A DNA stretch of 11,267 bases, taken from assembly GCA_038886535.1 (NCBI GenBank), contig JAVZXS010000016.1, forward strand, positions 1 through 11,267. The letters run 5' to 3'. Position 1 is the first letter of the stretch. Each line of letters opens with the position of its first letter. The stretch comes from Candidatus Micrarchaeia archaeon (GTDB lineage Archaea > Micrarchaeota > Micrarchaeia > CABMEP01). The position numbers and the translations under genes are program-made. Under the pieces are notes generated by a model. It ran no database searches and had not been told where the DNA came from. It was given only the letters and a program-made list of their open reading frames with translations. Below, piece by piece: positions 1,492 through 8,734 of this stretch.

Positions 1492-1614
1492 GTGGGGATG
1501 GCAGAGCCTGGTCAAATGCGCAGGACTTAAGACCCTGGTACAGGCTTATTCCTTTATGGAAGTAGGAAATCCTGTGCCGTAGTGGCTACGTGGGTTCAAA
1601 TCCCACTCCCCACA
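1492..1614 (+). tRNA. tRNA-Leu(UAA) with a 37-nt intron at canonical position 37/38 (intron 1532-1568). CCA not encoded.
   Basis: Acceptor stem GTGGGGA/TCCCCAC, discriminator A1614, D arm GCAGAGCCTGGTCAAATGC, anticodon stem CAGGA/TCCTG with CT-TAA-G, long variable arm GCCG-TAG-TGGC, T arm GTGGG-TTCAAAT-CCCAC. BHB-like motif: central helix CTTA(1526-29)/TAGG(1563-66), bulges AG^A and AA^A. Confidence 0.95.
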
Positions 1615-1683: not shown

Positions 1684-4600
1684 ATGAATCATTCGAATAG
1701 ATTTTCATTTTTTCCTTTATCATTCATCCTAATTATCTCGCTCATTCCATTAATATTTGCAGGTTATCCGATTATTTCACAAAGTCAAAGAGAGGCTGTC
1801 CCGATAAACGAGTCTTTAAGGAGCGTGGAAGGAGTTTATTCTGTTTTCCCATTTGTTGATTGTAGTTTAATACCTAATAGATATGGTGGATTTGGACATT
1901 GCAATGATTTTGTTGCTGATTTTTGTATAGATAAACAATTAGATCTTTCGCGGAGTATAATTCCACTTAATTCGGAAGAAAAAAACGAAATGAGATCAAT
2001 TCTAGCGAAATTAAAGTCTGCTGATGATTCTATAATAGCAATGAAGAATAAACTCTTCAGTTCTTTAGTGAAGAAGAATTGTACGTATGAAAATTTAATT
2101 TTATCCAGTCAATTAAAACATGTATTATCATTGAATGGAATTTCGTTAGTTTTTGATTATCTATTTTACAAGTATTTCAAAACTAATCCGATTAATTTTT
2201 ATGATTATTCTTTAAGAGTAACTTATTCTTGTGAAGGCATCGAAGTTCCAATTGTTTCTGATTTAATAGATATCTTAGTTGATTTTGTAATAAGTTTTGA
2301 TCGTTATCTGGAATACCAAACTTCAGCATATCAAAACGCAGCAGAGGCATTAAATAGTTTATTTGATTTAGTTATAAAACAAGCAGATTCTCTTTACTAT
2401 GAAGGCGCAGGATATTCGAATTACTCCACTTCAGCCTATAAATTCTATAATGAGAGGATAAAGTCATTCATCTATAAATCTAACCAAAACCAAATCGAAC
2501 CAACACAATCTGATTTGAATTCTCGAGATTTCTCCTCCTACTTTATATATGTTAGAAATATTAGTAAGAAAGTAAGCTCAGAACGAGTAAATAAACTTTC
2601 GAACTGTGAAATTGCAGTGATGTCATCTCCTCAATACATTATAGCGTTTAATTATTTGATAGATCTATATAGAGAGATTCAGGAAGCAAGGGCAACTTTG
2701 AGGTCGGATTATGATGTAGCAAAGTCTGAAGCAACACAGAAATTCATTGACGCACAGACAAGATACAATATTTTAATGAATGAGAAATATTGGCTTGTTA
2801 ATCAACCAATAGTGGCATATGCATTGAATTCATCCCAAGAAACAACAATGCAAGAAGGGTTGATCGTACCTTCAGATTCTTTAATGCAAATGAAAGAACT
2901 TTTGTATGGTTCGGGTTCATCTATAAGCGTGAAGAATCTTTTGGATGCAGCAAATAAGGATACAGATGATCAAGTAATATTCTATTATTCAAAGGGCATC
3001 GAAAAGTTTAGGAAAGCAACAGAACTATCGAAATTTGCAATCAATAACTCATACAAAATAGAGGTAGAATCTGATAACGTTCTAATTTCATTGAATGAAA
3101 AAGTAAGATACAAACTTGAATATGCACATAACAATCTAACTAAATATCCTGTTTATGATATAGCATCAGCTTCCGCTTATGAGTTATTGAATAATAAATA
3201 TCACGCAGCAGCTTCAATATATAATAATTACAATCCATCAAATACAACTAAAGGAGAGAGAATAGTTCAGCTATACAATGCAGCATTAATGCTTGATGAA
3301 GTAATCTCATTTGCTTCTATAAAGTCATCTGATATTATAGAATTAAAAAAGAAATCATTTAAAGAGGCATTAGATGAATTAAATGCAACAATAAAGAAAG
3401 CGCAAATGGATGAAATAGATATTACAGCTGAACTCCAATTATTAAATTCTAAGACTTTACTTTTAGGAATGAATGTTAATAACGTTTCATTCCTAGAAGA
3501 TTCGCTAAACGCTCTTATTCAGGCAAAAGAAGCTATATATTCAAAAGCAGAATTAATGTATTCAGATCTTCCATCCCTTAGGGCAAGAATTTATTCAATA
3601 ATTAATTCTATTTCACCTTACATGAACACAAACCAATACAGAACCACTATAGATCAAATAGATAGAATATACTTTATAGATGGAAGTTTTAATCCAAATA
3701 GATGCCTTGGAAACTATAAATCAATCAAAAACAATTATTCTGCTGTTTTAGAAGAGCTTAATAAAAATGCAGCATCGTTACTCTCAACATATCTATCAAA
3801 CAAATACAGCGCAAAGACATTATTTGATACAACACCACAAGTCGATTCCTATACAAATATAACAACATATTTAGAGATAAAGAATGATCTATCCTTAAGT
3901 ACTAATTCTCAAGTAGTTGTTCAGGTGAGAGGTATTCCATATGAAGTAAATAGTATTATTGAATCAGAAATTCCAGGTATATATGCAATAAAGAATAAAG
4001 ATTATGTTTCTATTTACTTCCCAACTATAAATAAAACTACAAACTATCTTTTAAAAATAAAATCCTATATTAAGCCATCTACTCTAGTTTCAAAGAAAAC
4101 TGAGAGATTAGTTCTTACAAATGAAAGATTGACAGAAAAAATTACATATGAAATTGATTCTATTTATGATATTGATTCATTAATTTTAACCGATAATTAT
4201 TGGGCTGATGAATGTTCTGTTTTTATGAATAATAGAATGCAAACTATAAGATCTTATTCTAATCTATCAATTTTACTTTCAAATGTAAAAACCGGTAAAC
4301 AATCAATTTATGCAACCTGTACTAAGAATAATCCGATTACATATTCTGCATCAGGATTTACAAGTTCTGATAATAAAATTTCATATACTTTACAAATAAA
4401 GAGTAATTATGAAGATTTGAATGACGTTGATTATGTATTAGAAATAATGGGTTCTGCAGACGAAATTCAATCTGATAGCATACGCGTTTATGATTCTAAA
4501 GGTCAAATAACAAAGAATTTCCAATTTTATAGAAGTGGTGATAAATATTATGCAAAATGGTTCATCCCAATACTTTCATCAGAATATCAGAATTATACCG

Positions 4601-5970
4601 TTTCATATGTGACTACAGATATTGTTTCTTACTATTCAAAATTAAAAAGCGAGATAGAGAATATATCTACATCCGAATCTATTGATGTTTCTTCTTACAT
4701 TAGAGATGCAACTTATCGTGCAAGTAGAGGAAAATATGACGAAGCAATAAATTCACTTGATAAGGCAAAGAAAGAAATATCACAAATTAGAACACAACGT
4801 TCAGAGAATTTATCACTTACAGAAAGACTCGATAAATTAAACAATAAAATTTTGCAACTTAAAAACAAATCAAATGAGATTTATTCGATAGCAATAAATC
4901 TTTCATTATCTGATATAAATGTAGAAGTTGCAAGGCAAATTGCAGAATTTGAGGCCGACTCACAATTGGCAAGAAATTATCTAGCGAAAGGAGACATTGC
5001 TAATGCAAAATCTTTAATCTCTAAGCTCGAAAAATTAGTTTCATCTACAAAAATTGATAACTCAATATATGCAAAAGAAAAGAAACTTTTAGATTCTTTA
5101 ATTCAAGCAGAAAGGAAAGTTGTAAGCATAGGTAAATTTACAGACATCTCTTCGCAGGTAGAAAGACTTAATAAGATAAAATCTTCTATTTCATTAGTAG
5201 AACCTGCAACAGCAGTCCAGGATTATTATACTGCATTAATAAATCTTAATAATGCATTTAATTTAATTAATGAAATAAATTCAGATATTGAAAACAGTTC
5301 AATTCAAATAAATGCACAACTTGAAGCTAAATTAAAAATTTCTAAAGAAGTTCTGAATAAATGGAAAAATAATAATAAAATTATTGTTAATGCATTTTCT
5401 ATAGATAAGAATTCACCTATAAAATCCATTCCAGAATCAATAGAGATATTAAATAAAATAAACATTACTGATTCGTTGGTAAATGAGCTTAATATATTAT
5501 ATTCAAAACTTAATGGATATAAATTAGATGAGAGAATAATTAATATCGCTGAATTTGAGGAATTAGATTCAAAGACAGATAAAATACAAAAAGATATTGA
5601 ATATTATGAGAAGCTAGTAGATCAATATAAGAGTGCATCAAATGAAATAATAAAAGATGCAGGTTTAATCTTCGAAGAAAAGCTAAATAAAGGTTCTGCG
5701 AATGAAAAGAAAAAAGTTGTAGATTTACAGCCAATTCTATCTTATGCGAAAGAATTGCATTCTGCAGGAATGTATCTAAATTCAATAATGTTAACCCAAT
5801 ATGCAAGAAACGAGCTAATTTCGATTCCATCAAATGAAGCAACTATAGATTTAACATTATTGGTGTACTTTGGAATAGTAATAATTGCGATAGCAATTAT
5901 ATTAAAAATAATATCAAGAAAAGAACCGCCAAAGATAGAGCGAAAGATAGAAAAAATTAAACTAGATTAA
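1684..5970 (+). CDS. Large (1428 aa) secreted, C-terminally anchored cell-surface protein of unknown function
   Basis: N-terminal signal peptide (..LSFILIISLIPLIFA^G), C-terminal TM helix (LTLLVYFGIVIIAIAIILKII) with a basic tail, about 20 N-x-S/T sequons, and helical regions flanking a beta-rich middle. TATA-like TTTTAAATA at about 1654-1662 with no SD suggests a leaderless transcript. Confidence 0.85.
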   Translation: MNHSNRFSFFPLSFILIISLIPLIFAGYPIISQSQREAVPINESLRSVEGVYSVFPFVDCSLIPNRYGGFGHCNDFVADFCIDKQLDLSRSIIPLNSEEKNEMRSILAKLKSADDSIIAMKNKLFSSLVKKNCTYENLILSSQLKHVLSLNGISLVFDYLFYKYFKTNPINFYDYSLRVTYSCEGIEVPIVSDLIDILVDFVISFDRYLEYQTSAYQNAAEALNSLFDLVIKQADSLYYEGAGYSNYSTSAYKFYNERIKSFIYKSNQNQIEPTQSDLNSRDFSSYFIYVRNISKKVSSERVNKLSNCEIAVMSSPQYIIAFNYLIDLYREIQEARATLRSDYDVAKSEATQKFIDAQTRYNILMNEKYWLVNQPIVAYALNSSQETTMQEGLIVPSDSLMQMKELLYGSGSSISVKNLLDAANKDTDDQVIFYYSKGIEKFRKATELSKFAINNSYKIEVESDNVLISLNEKVRYKLEYAHNNLTKYPVYDIASASAYELLNNKYHAAASIYNNYNPSNTTKGERIVQLYNAALMLDEVISFASIKSSDIIELKKKSFKEALDELNATIKKAQMDEIDITAELQLLNSKTLLLGMNVNNVSFLEDSLNALIQAKEAIYSKAELMYSDLPSLRARIYSIINSISPYMNTNQYRTTIDQIDRIYFIDGSFNPNRCLGNYKSIKNNYSAVLEELNKNAASLLSTYLSNKYSAKTLFDTTPQVDSYTNITTYLEIKNDLSLSTNSQVVVQVRGIPYEVNSIIESEIPGIYAIKNKDYVSIYFPTINKTTNYLLKIKSYIKPSTLVSKKTERLVLTNERLTEKITYEIDSIYDIDSLILTDNYWADECSVFMNNRMQTIRSYSNLSILLSNVKTGKQSIYATCTKNNPITYSASGFTSSDNKISYTLQIKSNYEDLNDVDYVLEIMGSADEIQSDSIRVYDSKGQITKNFQFYRSGDKYYAKWFIPILSSEYQNYTVSYVTTDIVSYYSKLKSEIENISTSESIDVSSYIRDATYRASRGKYDEAINSLDKAKKEISQIRTQRSENLSLTERLDKLNNKILQLKNKSNEIYSIAINLSLSDINVEVARQIAEFEADSQLARNYLAKGDIANAKSLISKLEKLVSSTKIDNSIYAKEKKLLDSLIQAERKVVSIGKFTDISSQVERLNKIKSSISLVEPATAVQDYYTALINLNNAFNLINEINSDIENSSIQINAQLEAKLKISKEVLNKWKNNNKIIVNAFSIDKNSPIKSIPESIEILNKINITDSLVNELNILYSKLNGYKLDERIINIAEFEELDSKTDKIQKDIEYYEKLVDQYKSASNEIIKDAGLIFEEKLNKGSANEKKKVVDLQPILSYAKELHSAGMYLNSIMLTQYARNELISIPSNEATIDLTLLVYFGIVIIAIAIILKIISRKEPPKIERKIEKIKLD

Positions 5971-6020
5971 AATCTGAATCCATATACAAAAATAAAAAAT
6001 AAGATTAAAAATTAAAAAGG

Positions 6021-6197
6021 TTAGTAGTCTTCGTCTTCGTATTCTTCTTCTTCGTCTATCCAATCGTCTTCAAATTCTTCCTCTTCATCTAGTTCTTCTT
6101 CCTCTTCTTCCTCTTCATCCTCATCTTCAAATTCTTCCTCTTCATCTAGTTCTTCTTCCTCTTCTTCCTCTAGTTTCTTAGGATTTCCTTTTGGCAT
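6021..6197 (-). CDS. 58-aa hyper-acidic microprotein (absent from ORF track): MPKGNPKKLEEEEEEELDEEEEFEDEDEEEEEEEELDEEEEFEDDWIDEEEEYEDEDY
   Basis: ATG at 6197 preceded by a strong SD (AAGGTGAGAAT-ATG), TAA at 6021-6023, synonymous variation in the Glu/Asp codons, an upstream BRE/TATA-like AAAAGATTTTTAATA and a downstream T-rich tract on the minus strand. Confidence 0.8.
   Translation of the reverse strand: MPKGNPKKLEEEEEEELDEEEEFEDEDEEEEEEEELDEEEEFEDDWIDEEEEYEDEDY
6067..6171. repeat. Perfect 48-nt direct repeat (6067-6114 and 6124-6171, period 57 nt = 19 codons) within the acidic microprotein gene
   Basis: TCTTCAAATTCTTCCTCTTCATCTAGTTCTTCTTCCTCTTCTTCCTCT occurs twice, in frame. Confidence 0.9.
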
Positions 6198-6307
6198 ATT
6201 CTCACCTTATAAGGTAAACTATCTGTGGTATATACATAATTAAGTATTAAAAATCTTTTTAATTTCACCAATTGGTTATATGTACTAACTAATCGATTTT
6301 ATATATT

Positions 6308-6817
6308 TTATAGTTTAATAGAATTTAATTTTATGTAGTCAACCTTTCTATTTTCTCTTACAATTGCAATAATAAGATTCTTTTTAGCAATTTGAGCAAC
6401 TCTTAGTAATCTATATATCTCCAATATAGTAATCTTTTCTCTCTCGGAAATCACTTCTATCAAGAAACTACTCTTTCCTTCGCCAGGTCTTATGCCTTTC
6501 TCATAAACCCTTAAAGGTGTTCCAAATCTATATCCAGATTTTAGTATATATCCTTTTTCTCTAAGATCTGAATAGACAATATATTTAATATCAATATCCT
6601 TTTCTTTCTTTATAAATTCTTTCATTAATTCTTTAAATTCAATTTTTTTATTCTTAGATTCTACCAATATTCTTTTGTTTTCTAACAAATACAATGCTTC
6701 ATATGGAGAAAGAATAAGTCTTTGTTCTTTGTCAAGAGTTCCATACCCTCTTTCCGTTAATACTTTAATTATTTTAGGATCTTCTTCAATAACAAAATTT
6801 TCCAGCAGATAAGCCAT
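6308..6817 (-). CDS. endA: tRNA-splicing endonuclease (EndA) family single-unit protein lacking the catalytic His, possibly a non-catalytic subunit or paralogue
   Basis: Motifs LSPYEALYL, VYSDLREKGY..KSG..FG..LRVY and RVA..AKK.LIIAIV. ATG 6817 preferred over GTG 6829 because the GGTGTGTGA SD-like sequence lies between them. Confidence 0.85.
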   Translation of the reverse strand: MAYLLENFVIEEDPKIIKVLTERGYGTLDKEQRLILSPYEALYLLENKRILVESKNKKIEFKELMKEFIKKEKDIDIKYIVYSDLREKGYILKSGYRFGTPLRVYEKGIRPGEGKSSFLIEVISEREKITILEIYRLLRVAQIAKKNLIIAIVRENRKVDYIKLNSIKL

Positions 6818-6873
6818 ACAATCACACACCTTATCTGAAAGTCAGTGAACATTATAATCATCGTATATTAAGC

Positions 6874-6881: not shown

Positions 6882-6912
6882 TTTCTCTGATAAAATATAT
6901 TCGGTGATACTA

Positions 6913-7302
6913 ATGGCAGAAGAAGAAATGAAAGAGGAGATTAAAGAGCCAGTTGAAGGAGAGGCAGAAATTGCTCCAGAAGAAGATGAGAGGCTTCCTT
7001 TCCCAACTGCAAGAGTTGTAAGAATATTAAAAGAAAATATGACAAAACCACATCAAATAAAAGCAGAAGTAAAAATAGCAGCGAATGAATTTCTCGGTGA
7101 AATCCTAAAAGATATTGCAAAAGAAATGGATAAGGAAGAAGTTTTTACGCTTTCAACTGAGCACTTCAATAAAGCAATAAAGAAATATAAAATGATAGAG
7201 TACCAGCAAAAGAGGATTGAAAGAATAAAGAAGCTTCTTGAGAAACAGAAGGCAGAAGTAGAAGAAGTAATAATAGAGATTGATCTTTCAAGAGATCTCT
7301 AA
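6913..7302 (+). CDS. Histone-fold protein with acidic N-terminal tail and C-terminal coiled-coil helix (coiled-coil-type archaeal histone variant)
   Basis: LPFPTARVVRILKE matches the histone alpha1 pattern (LP.A.+.RI.K). It is followed by L1, a long alpha2, an L2 with T(L) and alpha3 (EHFNKAI), then a heptad helix (QQKRIERIKKLLEKQKAEVEEVIIEID). SD GGTGA at 6903-6907 favours ATG 6913. Confidence 0.8.
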   Translation: MAEEEMKEEIKEPVEGEAEIAPEEDERLPFPTARVVRILKENMTKPHQIKAEVKIAANEFLGEILKDIAKEMDKEEVFTLSTEHFNKAIKKYKMIEYQQKRIERIKKLLEKQKAEVEEVIIEIDLSRDL

Positions 7303-7333: not shown

Positions 7334-8734
7334 ATGGCAGAAGAGAGAAAAAAGGACTACAGCTTTGAATTATTAGGCGCGTTAGTTCTTTTTCTTCTCT
7401 TAGCCTTACTCTGTTATTTTCATGTTATCTGCCCTCTTCCTTCTTGTCCTGATGGATTGGTTCAGTGTAATAACTGTCCTGGCAATTGTTGTTTGCCAGA
7501 TGGTAGCTGTCCATGTCCAGCCGGTTCAGTTCCATGCAGCACCTATTGTCCTCAAACACTAAATTGCCCTAGTGGGTGTTGCAATATCGATACATGTGCA
7601 TGCACTGCAACTCCACAATGCCCTCCTAATACAGTTTGGAGCGAATCAAGAGGATGTTGTCTGTTCACTTCAGGTCCAAACGCAGGGAAGTGCGCAGAAA
7701 TATGCAATGTTGATCTAAAAAGAGTGACATGTCCTATAAAGGGACTAGATGCATGTGATTCAAACAATTGCTGTCCATTAGGCTCATTGGGATGGGATGA
7801 TTCTCAAAAATGCTGTGTAGATTCATTAGGGACATGCATTCTAAGTTGCTTGATTGACAATACAAGAACCGGTTGTCCAACTCCTGGTGTAAAGGGATGT
7901 GATGCAACAGGCTGCTGTCCAAAGGATACATATTGGGACAGCAAGAAAGAATGTTGCGTTTATGAAAATGGTTTTTGCTATGGGGATCCCTGTGCAGATG
8001 TTCAATGCCCACCAGACCAAGTTTGTATCAATGGAAATTGCAAACTTCAAATCGATCTATGTGAAGGGGTTATTTGCGATGAAGGCCAAATTTGCGATCC
8101 TTTAACTAGGTTGTGCTCAGATCCATGTAAGAATGTGTTCTGTCCTGCAGGCCAAATATGCATTAACGGAAATTGTGAAACTGACCAATGTTACAATGTT
8201 CAGTGTCCAGCAGGCCAGATTTGTATAAATGGAAACTGTATAGATCAATGCGAAGGAAAGATATGTCCAGCAGGGCAGGAGTGTGATCCAGAGACTGGAA
8301 GTTGCAAAGATAAAAAGTGCAGTTCATCAACTCAATGCAGAATCTGTGATTTAGAACTTGGTGTTTGCGGGGGGATTCCAGGTTCAAGCCAATGCTCATC
8401 AGACGATGATTGTAAGAATGTCGAATGCCAGGCTTCAGGTACGTGTGGTATAAGTGGAGGGGTAGGTGGAAATGGAGGAGAAGGCTCTAATTTAGTGAGT
8501 TGCAATTATAAAGGGTCATTTACTCAGTGTCCTTCAGACATAATATGTTCAAATGGATGCGCTGAAGAGATAAAATGTGCAGATCTGCGTCTTCCTGAAG
8601 GTCAGTGCAAAGGAGTAGGAGAAACATGCAGCAGCTCAACAGAATGCTGCTGTGGAAACAGTTGTCAGATTGTAAACGGACAGGGATTCTGCTGTCCAGG
8701 TGGATTATGGCAATGCGGCTATCAATTCGAATAA
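7334..8734 (+). CDS. Membrane-anchored, extremely cysteine-rich repeat surface protein (466 aa)
   Basis: N-terminal hydrophobic helix (LLGALVLFLLLALLCYF), 78 Cys by manual count (about 17%), several repeat classes and a Gly-rich linker. Confidence 0.9.
   Translation: MAEERKKDYSFELLGALVLFLLLALLCYFHVICPLPSCPDGLVQCNNCPGNCCLPDGSCPCPAGSVPCSTYCPQTLNCPSGCCNIDTCACTATPQCPPNTVWSESRGCCLFTSGPNAGKCAEICNVDLKRVTCPIKGLDACDSNNCCPLGSLGWDDSQKCCVDSLGTCILSCLIDNTRTGCPTPGVKGCDATGCCPKDTYWDSKKECCVYENGFCYGDPCADVQCPPDQVCINGNCKLQIDLCEGVICDEGQICDPLTRLCSDPCKNVFCPAGQICINGNCETDQCYNVQCPAGQICINGNCIDQCEGKICPAGQECDPETGSCKDKKCSSSTQCRICDLELGVCGGIPGSSQCSSDDDCKNVECQASGTCGISGGVGGNGGEGSNLVSCNYKGSFTQCPSDIICSNGCAEEIKCADLRLPEGQCKGVGETCSSSTECCCGNSCQIVNGQGFCCPGGLWQCGYQFE
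7619..7978 (+). repeat. Three CP-x4/5-W-x5-CC-xn-G-x-C modules (the last two within about 48-aa units)
   Basis: CPPNTVWSESRGCC, CPLGSLGWDDSQKCC, CPKDTYWDSKKECC. Confidence 0.8.
7985..8305 (+). repeat. Five tandem D-x-C-x4-C-x5-C-x4/6-C modules (about 21 aa)
   Basis: DPCADVQCPPDQVCINGNC, DLCEGVICDEGQICDPLTRLC, DPCKNVFCPAGQICINGNC, DQCYNVQCPAGQICINGNC, DQCEGKICPAGQECDPETGSC. Confidence 0.9.

Follow-up and report, generated by a model that had tools for sequence, protein, structure and literature searches.

Features of the locus

The window (the whole stretch of 11,267 nucleotides that was analysed) belongs to a genome of 1.14 Mb, referred to here as G000. A preliminary description had pointed to a short, highly acidic reading frame in it, and the analysis below concerns this micro-ORF, its relatives and its possible partners. 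The features of interest are as follows, with residue numbers referring to the peptide:

1684-5970, plus strand: gene whose 1,428-aa product is hydrophobic at both termini; converges on the micro-ORF and serves as a positional marker only
5988-6020, minus strand: oligo-T tract 3' of the micro-ORF stop, a predicted archaeal terminator
6021-6197, minus strand: acidic microprotein gene (the micro-ORF), 58 aa, not in the ORF track
6043-6171, minus strand: in-frame 57-nt tandem duplication within the micro-ORF, about 2.2 copies, 91% match
6060-6062, minus strand: codon of Trp46, the invariant aromatic of an F-[DE]-[DE]-[DE]-W core
6202-6206, minus strand: Shine-Dalgarno site GGTGA, 4 nt 5' of the ATG
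6245-6260, minus strand: BRE/TATA-like element, a predicted promoter of the micro-ORF's own, near-identical across seven genus genomes
6308-6829, minus strand: endA-like tRNA splicing endonuclease gene, upstream of the micro-ORF; product basic (pI 9.3)
6904-7302, plus strand: gene for a histone-fold protein of 132 aa whose N-terminal tail is acidic; a neighbour within the order only
Peptide residues 1-8: basic leader, followed by the D/E tract
Peptide residues 9, 17, 23, 36, 42, 46, 47, 53 and 58: L/F/W/I/Y anchors in the D/E tract
Peptide residues 17-26, 36-45 and 47-56: (L/I)DEEEE(F/Y)ED(E/D) motifs

The preliminary description had given an ORF missing from the track, 58 aa long, with 41 acidic residues and a basic leader; all of this was recomputed alike, and the Shine-Dalgarno site, promoter-like element and T-rich tract that it mentioned were located at the positions listed. 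The acidic residues comprise 32 Glu and 9 Asp (0.71 of the peptide). Among the 9,960 ORFs of at least 25 aa in G000, the micro-ORF ranks first for acidity, the next having a D/E content of 0.30, and several acidic-run patterns scanned on the genome gave it as their single match. There are five aromatics (F23, F42, W46, Y53 and Y58), including one Trp only. The three acidic motifs of the preliminary description are present, but the first two stem from the one 57-nt duplication (48 identical nucleotides) and are therefore not independent of each other. Its regularly spaced hydrophobic and aromatic anchors are also there; what it overlooked is that Trp46 is invariant in all nine family peptides, the sole such hydrophobic residue besides Met1. 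Trp is present in 10 of the 10 peptides of the order.

GGTGA precedes the start in all nine family genomes, the window's included, against a genome background of 267 in 40,343 ATGs (0.7%). Within 30 nt past the stop there are 21 T; this count is 16-22 in seven genus genomes and weaker in G007, G008 and G009. A sigma-70 scan was uninformative (six sites, 5.6 expected), the sigma-70 model being inapplicable to archaea. Across the class, an SD-like site lies before 77 of 85 micro-ORFs, a figure inflated by a script that favoured SD-bearing starts; a TATA-like site was found for 64 of the 85, with 25 expected from shuffles, and a downstream T5 run for 69, with 47 expected. The next gene is on the opposite strand in the window and, by rough ORF scoring, at 55 of 84 class loci. 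A perfect 12-bp palindrome (6204-6215) overlaps the Shine-Dalgarno site; it is almost intact in most genus relatives and has a partial duplicate in G006.

As for the neighbours, the 1,428-aa protein has no match in Pfam or NCBIfam; it is conserved across the order and remotely in six further families, and in G007 (L047) its frame continues through the antisense strand of the micro-ORF. The endA gene is directly upstream, on the same strand, in all nine family genomes. It is apart from the micro-ORF in G009, and two distant endA loci (L009 and L011) have no micro-ORF; the link to endA is local synteny. G000 has two EndA forms, the single-unit 173-aa gene of the window and a two-unit gene at G000:C1:41365-42189, in a 385-codon frame. 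The histone-fold protein is net acidic (pI 5.0; 32 D/E versus 24 K/R) and distinct from the HMf-type histone at G000:C5:12393-12587. Its homologues (49-98% identity) are present in 96 of the 401 class genomes, with none found in several large families; outside the order, none of 21 loci of its gene has an acidic micro-ORF within 1.5 kb. The preliminary description had pointed to the histone and EndA-like neighbours as proteins that the acidic peptide might bind, and these observations do not support either as a dedicated client.

Two other genes of the window deserve mention. At 7334-8734 (plus strand) lies a gene of higher GC content (43-44%) for a cysteine-rich repeat protein of 466 aa whose N-terminus carries a hydrophobic segment; in the family this gene is conserved beside the histone-fold gene. 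A tRNA of 123 nt at 1492-1614 (plus strand; Rfam, 48.5 bits) was missed by ARAGORN; it is apparently a tRNA-Leu(UAA) in which extra sequence, perhaps a non-canonical intron, follows the anticodon arm.

Conservation and range of the micro-ORF

An acidic ORF occupies the same, syntenic position in each of the eight other family genomes. These ORFs encode 34-56 aa with 58-70% D/E, and each start is preceded by GGTGA. In G009, from the order's other family, a 45-aa version is flanked by the genes for the 1,428-aa and histone-fold proteins, and endA does not intervene. The tract varies in length among relatives, and D and E swap freely; the spacing of Phe/Tyr is conserved. In close pairs the ratios of synonymous to non-synonymous codon changes are 4:1, 10:1, 6:0 and 7:2, and in distant pairs many of the amino-acid replacements are exchanges between D and E. 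Nucleotide gaps are divisible by three in 24 of 36 cases in the coding sequence versus 25 of 74 upstream. Codon changes in close pairs are thus mostly synonymous and most gaps keep the frame: selection acts on the protein sequence, and the micro-ORF is a conserved, stand-alone, single-copy reading frame under purifying selection. At the level of sequence, the preliminary description had let its case depend on two points, a conserved acidic ORF in relatives and a tract clear of frame-breaking indels; the ORF is indeed kept in all eight, and the gaps are mostly frame-keeping. Elsewhere, a genome may have a pair of acidic micro-ORFs, in tandem or apart (L081, L084, L107, L108, L215; also L298 and L338 in G012, and L323 and L324 in G079).

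At E values up to 10, none of nine family members matched any Pfam family, biased composition lowering HMMER scores; NCBIfam gave no match for the window peptide and nine relatives' peptides, and PDB sequences gave none for the window peptide. An alignment-based homologue search returned 0 of 7,988 candidates at E <= 0.01. The ESM Atlas contains the peptide sequence, with a best match of 0.85, which is at lead level only. In a collection of 15 billion proteins there was no exact match to the window peptide or to 10 relatives' peptides, one of these from a complete Pyrobaculum genome; two neighbouring proteins of the window are likewise missing from it. None of the contigs from one RNA run of the same study mapped to the region, which says nothing for or against expression. 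Among the titles and abstract openings searched, there was no description of this micro-gene family and no report of ABCE1 loss in Micrarchaeota.

A profile search of the 401 class genomes matched nine and missed two known family members, and is thus insensitive on this composition; codon patterns were used for the range because profile searches fail in this way. Loci were then called stand-alone by a definition independent of the search pattern (an ORF of at most 70 aa with at least 55% D/E, in a closed frame of at most 140 codons). A 12-codon acidic run occurs in 361 of the 401 class genomes. Stand-alone ORFs were seen at 25 of 30 loci examined from these matches (families f4 and f16 only), at 20 of 30 loci of a wider sample, in 19 of 20 fetched regions, and at 6 of 6 loci in each of f5 and f10. 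At eight loci in six further families, a homologue of the 1,428-aa gene (E values from 1e-18 to 7e-5) converges on an acidic micro-ORF, which supports orthology within the class. Positional orthology could be traced within Micrarchaeia only, in eight families; across phyla there is no common neighbour.

More broadly, stand-alone acidic micro-ORFs of 18-61 codons are found across Micrarchaeia and Thermoproteota and are rare in Thermoplasmatota and bacteria. Scanning all GTDB genomes for an exact motif yielded 89 matches; among the 80 listed, 58 are archaeal and 22 bacterial by title. Of these listed matches, 48 of the 58 archaeal loci are stand-alone and 2 of the 22 bacterial loci passed the filter, both as tails of 74-80-aa ORFs. 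In the phylum of Pyrobaculum, a W-centred pattern matched 97 of 151 genomes versus two for the reversed control, and 63 of 70 Thermoproteota loci examined are stand-alone. Among Thermoplasmatota, 24 of 91 genomes matched, with a stand-alone ORF at only one of 24 loci; in the phylum of G554 (17 genomes), two of six loci are stand-alone. Sampling by group covered Micrarchaeia, the phylum of Pyrobaculum, Thermoplasmatota and the phylum of G554, and did not extend to Halobacteriota, Methanobacteriota, Asgard archaea or the main Nanoarchaeota. Most Micrarchaeia and many Thermoproteota, genomes of less than 1 Mb included, keep the gene, which appears to be missing from annotation. The low complexity of the sequence means that homology between phyla cannot be demonstrated, and convergence of peptides with different jobs could give the same picture.

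The window ORF has the features taken to define an archaeal acidic W/F micro-gene (at most 70 aa, at least 55% D/E, W or F, a Shine-Dalgarno site and a TATA-like element). In 158 distinct peptides, D/E make up 70% of residues, followed by W (6.6%, partly selected by the patterns) and F (4.2%). Trp is retained in 9 of 9 peptides of the window's family (f1), 4 of 6 of f10 and 1 of 6 of f5, whose peptides are almost pure D/E; the Trp anchor is not universal, f5 being mostly without it. Acidic-Trp sequences also turn up in other settings. At L121, L126, L153 and L155 (Thermoplasmatota, Euryarchaeota, Poseidoniales and Methanobacteriota records), the motif lies within a longer protein of at least about 210 aa, which looks like an extended eL32; a Chloroflexota 80-aa protein (L125, L147, L160, L166 and L189) combines a Cys-containing head with an acidic, Trp-studded tail.

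Candidate partners and role

In Thermoproteota, an ABCE1 gene starts within 450 nt downstream, on the same strand, of 33 of 63 stand-alone micro-ORFs. Neither tblastn nor an exhaustive six-frame profile search nor family models gave ABCE1 in G000, and it was not found in the eight family relatives, which are 54-94% complete (0 of 9 genomes for f1 in total); it was likewise not found in any of 14 f5 and 13 f10 genomes. Three of the f5 and f10 genomes are single-contig, and every sampled f5 and f10 locus has a micro-ORF. In two overlapping samples of Micrarchaeia, 37 of 61 and 29 of 60 genomes gave ABCE1, and a micro-ORF lies within 1.5 kb at none of 12 Micrarchaeia ABCE1 loci. The distribution suggests that ABCE1 was repeatedly lost in Micrarchaeia families. 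ABCE1/RLI is described as essential for ribosome recycling (PMC6125642), and its apparent repeated loss is noteworthy in its own right. No ABCE1 was found in several genomes of f8, f12, f17 and f25 either, and certain copies in f3 and f8 have diverged strongly (about 430-480 bits versus 700-850). HflX was considered as a substitute and set aside, with no match above the cut-off in five of five genomes. So was the idea that Trp tracks ABCE1: f5 is mostly without Trp, yet f1 (9/9) and f10 (4/6) keep Trp without ABCE1.

Histones were found in all five Micrarchaeia genomes tested, including G000 (on C5). Three of five Thermoproteota genomes tested (G401, G404 and G414) gave no match to the histone family PF00808, and all three have the peptide; G401 is the complete Pyrobaculum genome. 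Since the micro-gene is kept in f1, f5 and f10, where ABCE1 was not found, and in these three genomes without a histone match, there is no single dedicated partner among these, and neither ABCE1 nor histones can be its sole partner.

Recurrent neighbours in Micrarchaeia include an AAA_18 kinase, presumably Fap7-like, at nine loci, CDC48 at four f5 loci and an HMf-type histone at three of five f7 loci. A highly conserved 90-aa protein lies near the micro-ORF at 17 loci (L098:1073-1342, minus strand, and 16 others). No copy of it was found in G000, and it matches nothing in Pfam or NCBIfam. Its predicted structure is confident (pLDDT 92) and combines a beta-sheet with a long helix, for which COMM, Whirly, Pur and PC4-type folds are only weak matches (E 0.05-0.45). 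The micro-ORF was also considered as a split-off aP1 tail and rejected as such, aP1 being intact in five of five genomes; in G000 it lies at G000:C2:33883-34131 with its own tail present.

We give even chances to the following explanation: the product is disordered, acts in trans and uses its negative charge and aromatic anchors to shield the basic surfaces with which several client proteins, probably involved in translation, bind nucleic acids. The D/E tract would lie along basic RNA- or DNA-binding surfaces, and Trp46 together with Phe/Tyr would fit into hydrophobic pockets, in the manner of the APLF acidic domain when it binds histones. Basic proteins would thereby stay in solution, protected from binding the wrong nucleic acid, until they are passed on. 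More weakly inferred is that the main clients are translation-related, namely ABCE1 where present and ribosomal proteins or factors, with histones as possible additional clients. Translating N-terminal acidic runs destabilises the ribosomes of E. coli, an effect that bulky residues oppose (bioRxiv 10.1101/2021.02.02.429294). In the micro-ORF, the basic or bulky leader and the bulky residues of the tract may similarly ease the ribosome's passage by countering such destabilisation. The preliminary description had suggested a polyanionic chaperone or decoy. A real, conserved and unannotated polyanion is what we find, and a similar role is the one we favour; the idea of its neighbours as dedicated clients is the part that finds no support.

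Several observations bear on this shielding role. With a net charge of 0.655 per residue at a hydropathy of 0.227, the peptide falls far on the disordered side of the 0.649 boundary and is likely to be disordered. AlphaFold2 predicts a single long helix (residues 6-54, pLDDT 80.9, pTM 0.46) instead of a low-confidence coil; we read this helix as a poly-Glu artefact, but the model gives disorder no support. With the next gene on the opposite strand and no downstream target, a role in trans fits the layout. Neighbours that change by lineage, together with presence tests that fail for both ABCE1 and histones, favour several clients. Housekeeping genes in archaea, whatever their function, commonly have translation genes beside them, and a universal single partner, such as one ribosomal site, fits the same distribution. 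A precedent for one peptide serving several clients is given by aP1, which uses one hydrophobic motif for ABCE1, aEF1A and aEF2 (PMC6125642).

Other explanations tie the peptide to one client. A dedicated histone chaperone, which would bind the HMf-type histone dimer through acidic tract and aromatic anchors and control its loading onto DNA, is unlikely. The micro-ORF does lie directly upstream of the HMf-type gene, on the same strand, at the three f7 loci (L218, L219 and L221), histones occur in all the Micrarchaeia tested, the anatomy resembles the double-aromatic anchor of APLF (PMC6101569), and archaea are described as having no known histone-chaperone homologues (PMC7990501); but G401, G414 and G404 have the peptide with no histone match, and the window's histone-fold neighbour is acidic and unlinked outside the order (0/21). 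A dedicated cofactor or regulator of ABCE1, using the binding site of the eIF3j N-terminus or of the aP1 stalk tail, would account for the 33 of 63 Thermoproteota loci and has a plausible site in the multivalent ABCE1 patch that binds both of these ligands (PMC7780240). It is rendered decidedly unlikely by the micro-ORFs kept in f1, f5 and f10, where ABCE1 was not found (0/9, 0/14 and 0/13), and by the 12 Micrarchaeia ABCE1 loci with no micro-ORF nearby; ABCE1 may nonetheless be one client in Thermoproteota. Specificity for the upstream EndA, as an RNA-mimicking inhibitor or chaperone, draws on the basic character of that enzyme (pI 9.3) and its adjacency in all nine family genomes, and it is very improbable given the separation in G009 and at the endA loci of G054 and G019 and the micro-ORF's own TATA-like element.

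The remaining explanations dispense with a protein client. Translation of the acidic tract could itself be the function, destabilising the ribosome (intrinsic ribosome destabilisation, IRD) to regulate a downstream gene, with the aromatics tuning the effect and the peptide as a by-product. Destabilisation by N-terminal acidic runs, with bulky residues counteracting, is described for E. coli (bioRxiv 10.1101/2021.02.02.429294), and a position upstream of a ribosome-splitting factor would make sense; however, in the window a T-tract closes the ORF and the next gene runs towards it, leaving no downstream target; the next gene is on the opposite strand at 55 of 84 class loci too, and the word 'archaea' is absent from the text of that preprint. 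We regard such a sensor as improbable. A buffer for cations (Mg2+, Ca2+, K+ or polyamine) or a modifier of condensates is quite improbable: 41 carboxylates in 58 residues, free D/E exchange, variable tract length and the nearly pure D/E peptides of f5 are what it would predict, but buffering has no need of an invariant Trp and conserved Phe/Tyr spacing, and no metal-transport neighbours recur among the loci examined. That the ORF is a purine-rich repeat expansion or other non-coding element is hardly credible. The tandem duplication inside it and the lack of an exact match in the 15-billion-protein collection (where two neighbour proteins are missing too) can be cited in favour; changes nevertheless cluster at third codon positions, gaps preserve the frame, the frame survives across a locus GC of 32% to 59%, and SD-like sites precede 77 of 85 class micro-ORFs (SD-bearing starts being preferred by the script).

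What is new here is the range in Micrarchaeia, the evidence for selection and the exclusion of ABCE1 or histones as sole partner. If the product is a polyanionic chaperone, it would explain how free histones and other basic proteins are dealt with in archaea, where no chaperones for this are known (PMC7990501). A wider claim, which we offer tentatively and consider doubtful, is that Micrarchaeia, Thermoproteota and other archaea with small genomes inherited one ancient gene, overlooked in annotation, whose product is a free-standing polyanionic chaperone for basic nucleic-acid-binding proteins such as ribosomal proteins, translation factors and histones. It would be the first archaeal chaperone of its kind, a functional forerunner of Sem1/DSS1, eIF3j and the acidic-aromatic modules of histone chaperones, and would outlast ABCE1 in reduced genomes.

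Comparison with known systems

Leader peptides that act through IRD (MgtL-like) differ from the micro-ORF in layout: there is no co-directional downstream gene, and the arrangement is convergent in the window and nine relatives. Among peptides that act as ligands, the eIF3j/Hcr1 N-terminal region and the aP1 stalk tail bind NBD1 of ABCE1 flexibly (PMC7780240, PMC6125642), aP1 through hydrophobic residues (PMC6125642). The 58-aa peptide lacks the helical-bundle dimerisation domain of eIF3j/Hcr1, with no Pfam or PDB match, and both the N-terminal stalk domain (PF00428) and the terminal LxxLF helix of aP1; it occurs where ABCE1 was not found, in G000 and eight relatives.

Closer in design are the acidic tracts of APLF, YL1, Spt16, Pob3 and the Nap1 tails, which carry spaced aromatics as the micro-ORF peptide does; in APLF, a Tyr and a Trp anchor the acidic domain on the DNA-binding surface of H2A-H2B (PMC6101569). 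The window peptide has more than the two spaced aromatics in an acidic tract by which APLF/YL1-type domains are recognised (F23, F42, W46, Y53 and Y58), a likeness of composition only. Those domains are segments of large eukaryotic proteins, whereas the micro-ORF is a whole 58-aa gene and, unlike what is expected of a histone-chaperone domain, is present in genomes without a histone match.

Free-standing counterparts are DSS1/Sem1 and prothymosin alpha. DSS1/Sem1 is small, stand-alone, disordered, acidic and Trp/Phe-bearing, serves many clients and has been called a DNA mimic. The micro-ORF peptide is shorter, far more acidic, archaeal and without a separate C-terminal helix region; the Pfam DSS1_SEM1 model matched none of the nine members at E values up to 10, biased composition lowering the scores. 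Prothymosin alpha, at about 110 aa roughly twice as long as the micro-ORF peptide, is not known to carry aromatics. It differs in this from the micro-ORF peptides, which are marked by W/F (five aromatics in 58 aa in the window), and the Pfam prothymosin model does not match the family members. It is likewise free-standing, highly negative and disordered, and it chaperones a basic chromatin protein (PMC12139302, PMC10576128). By analogy, the micro-ORF peptide probably works like these eukaryotic acidic-aromatic chaperone modules, DSS1/Sem1 or prothymosin alpha.
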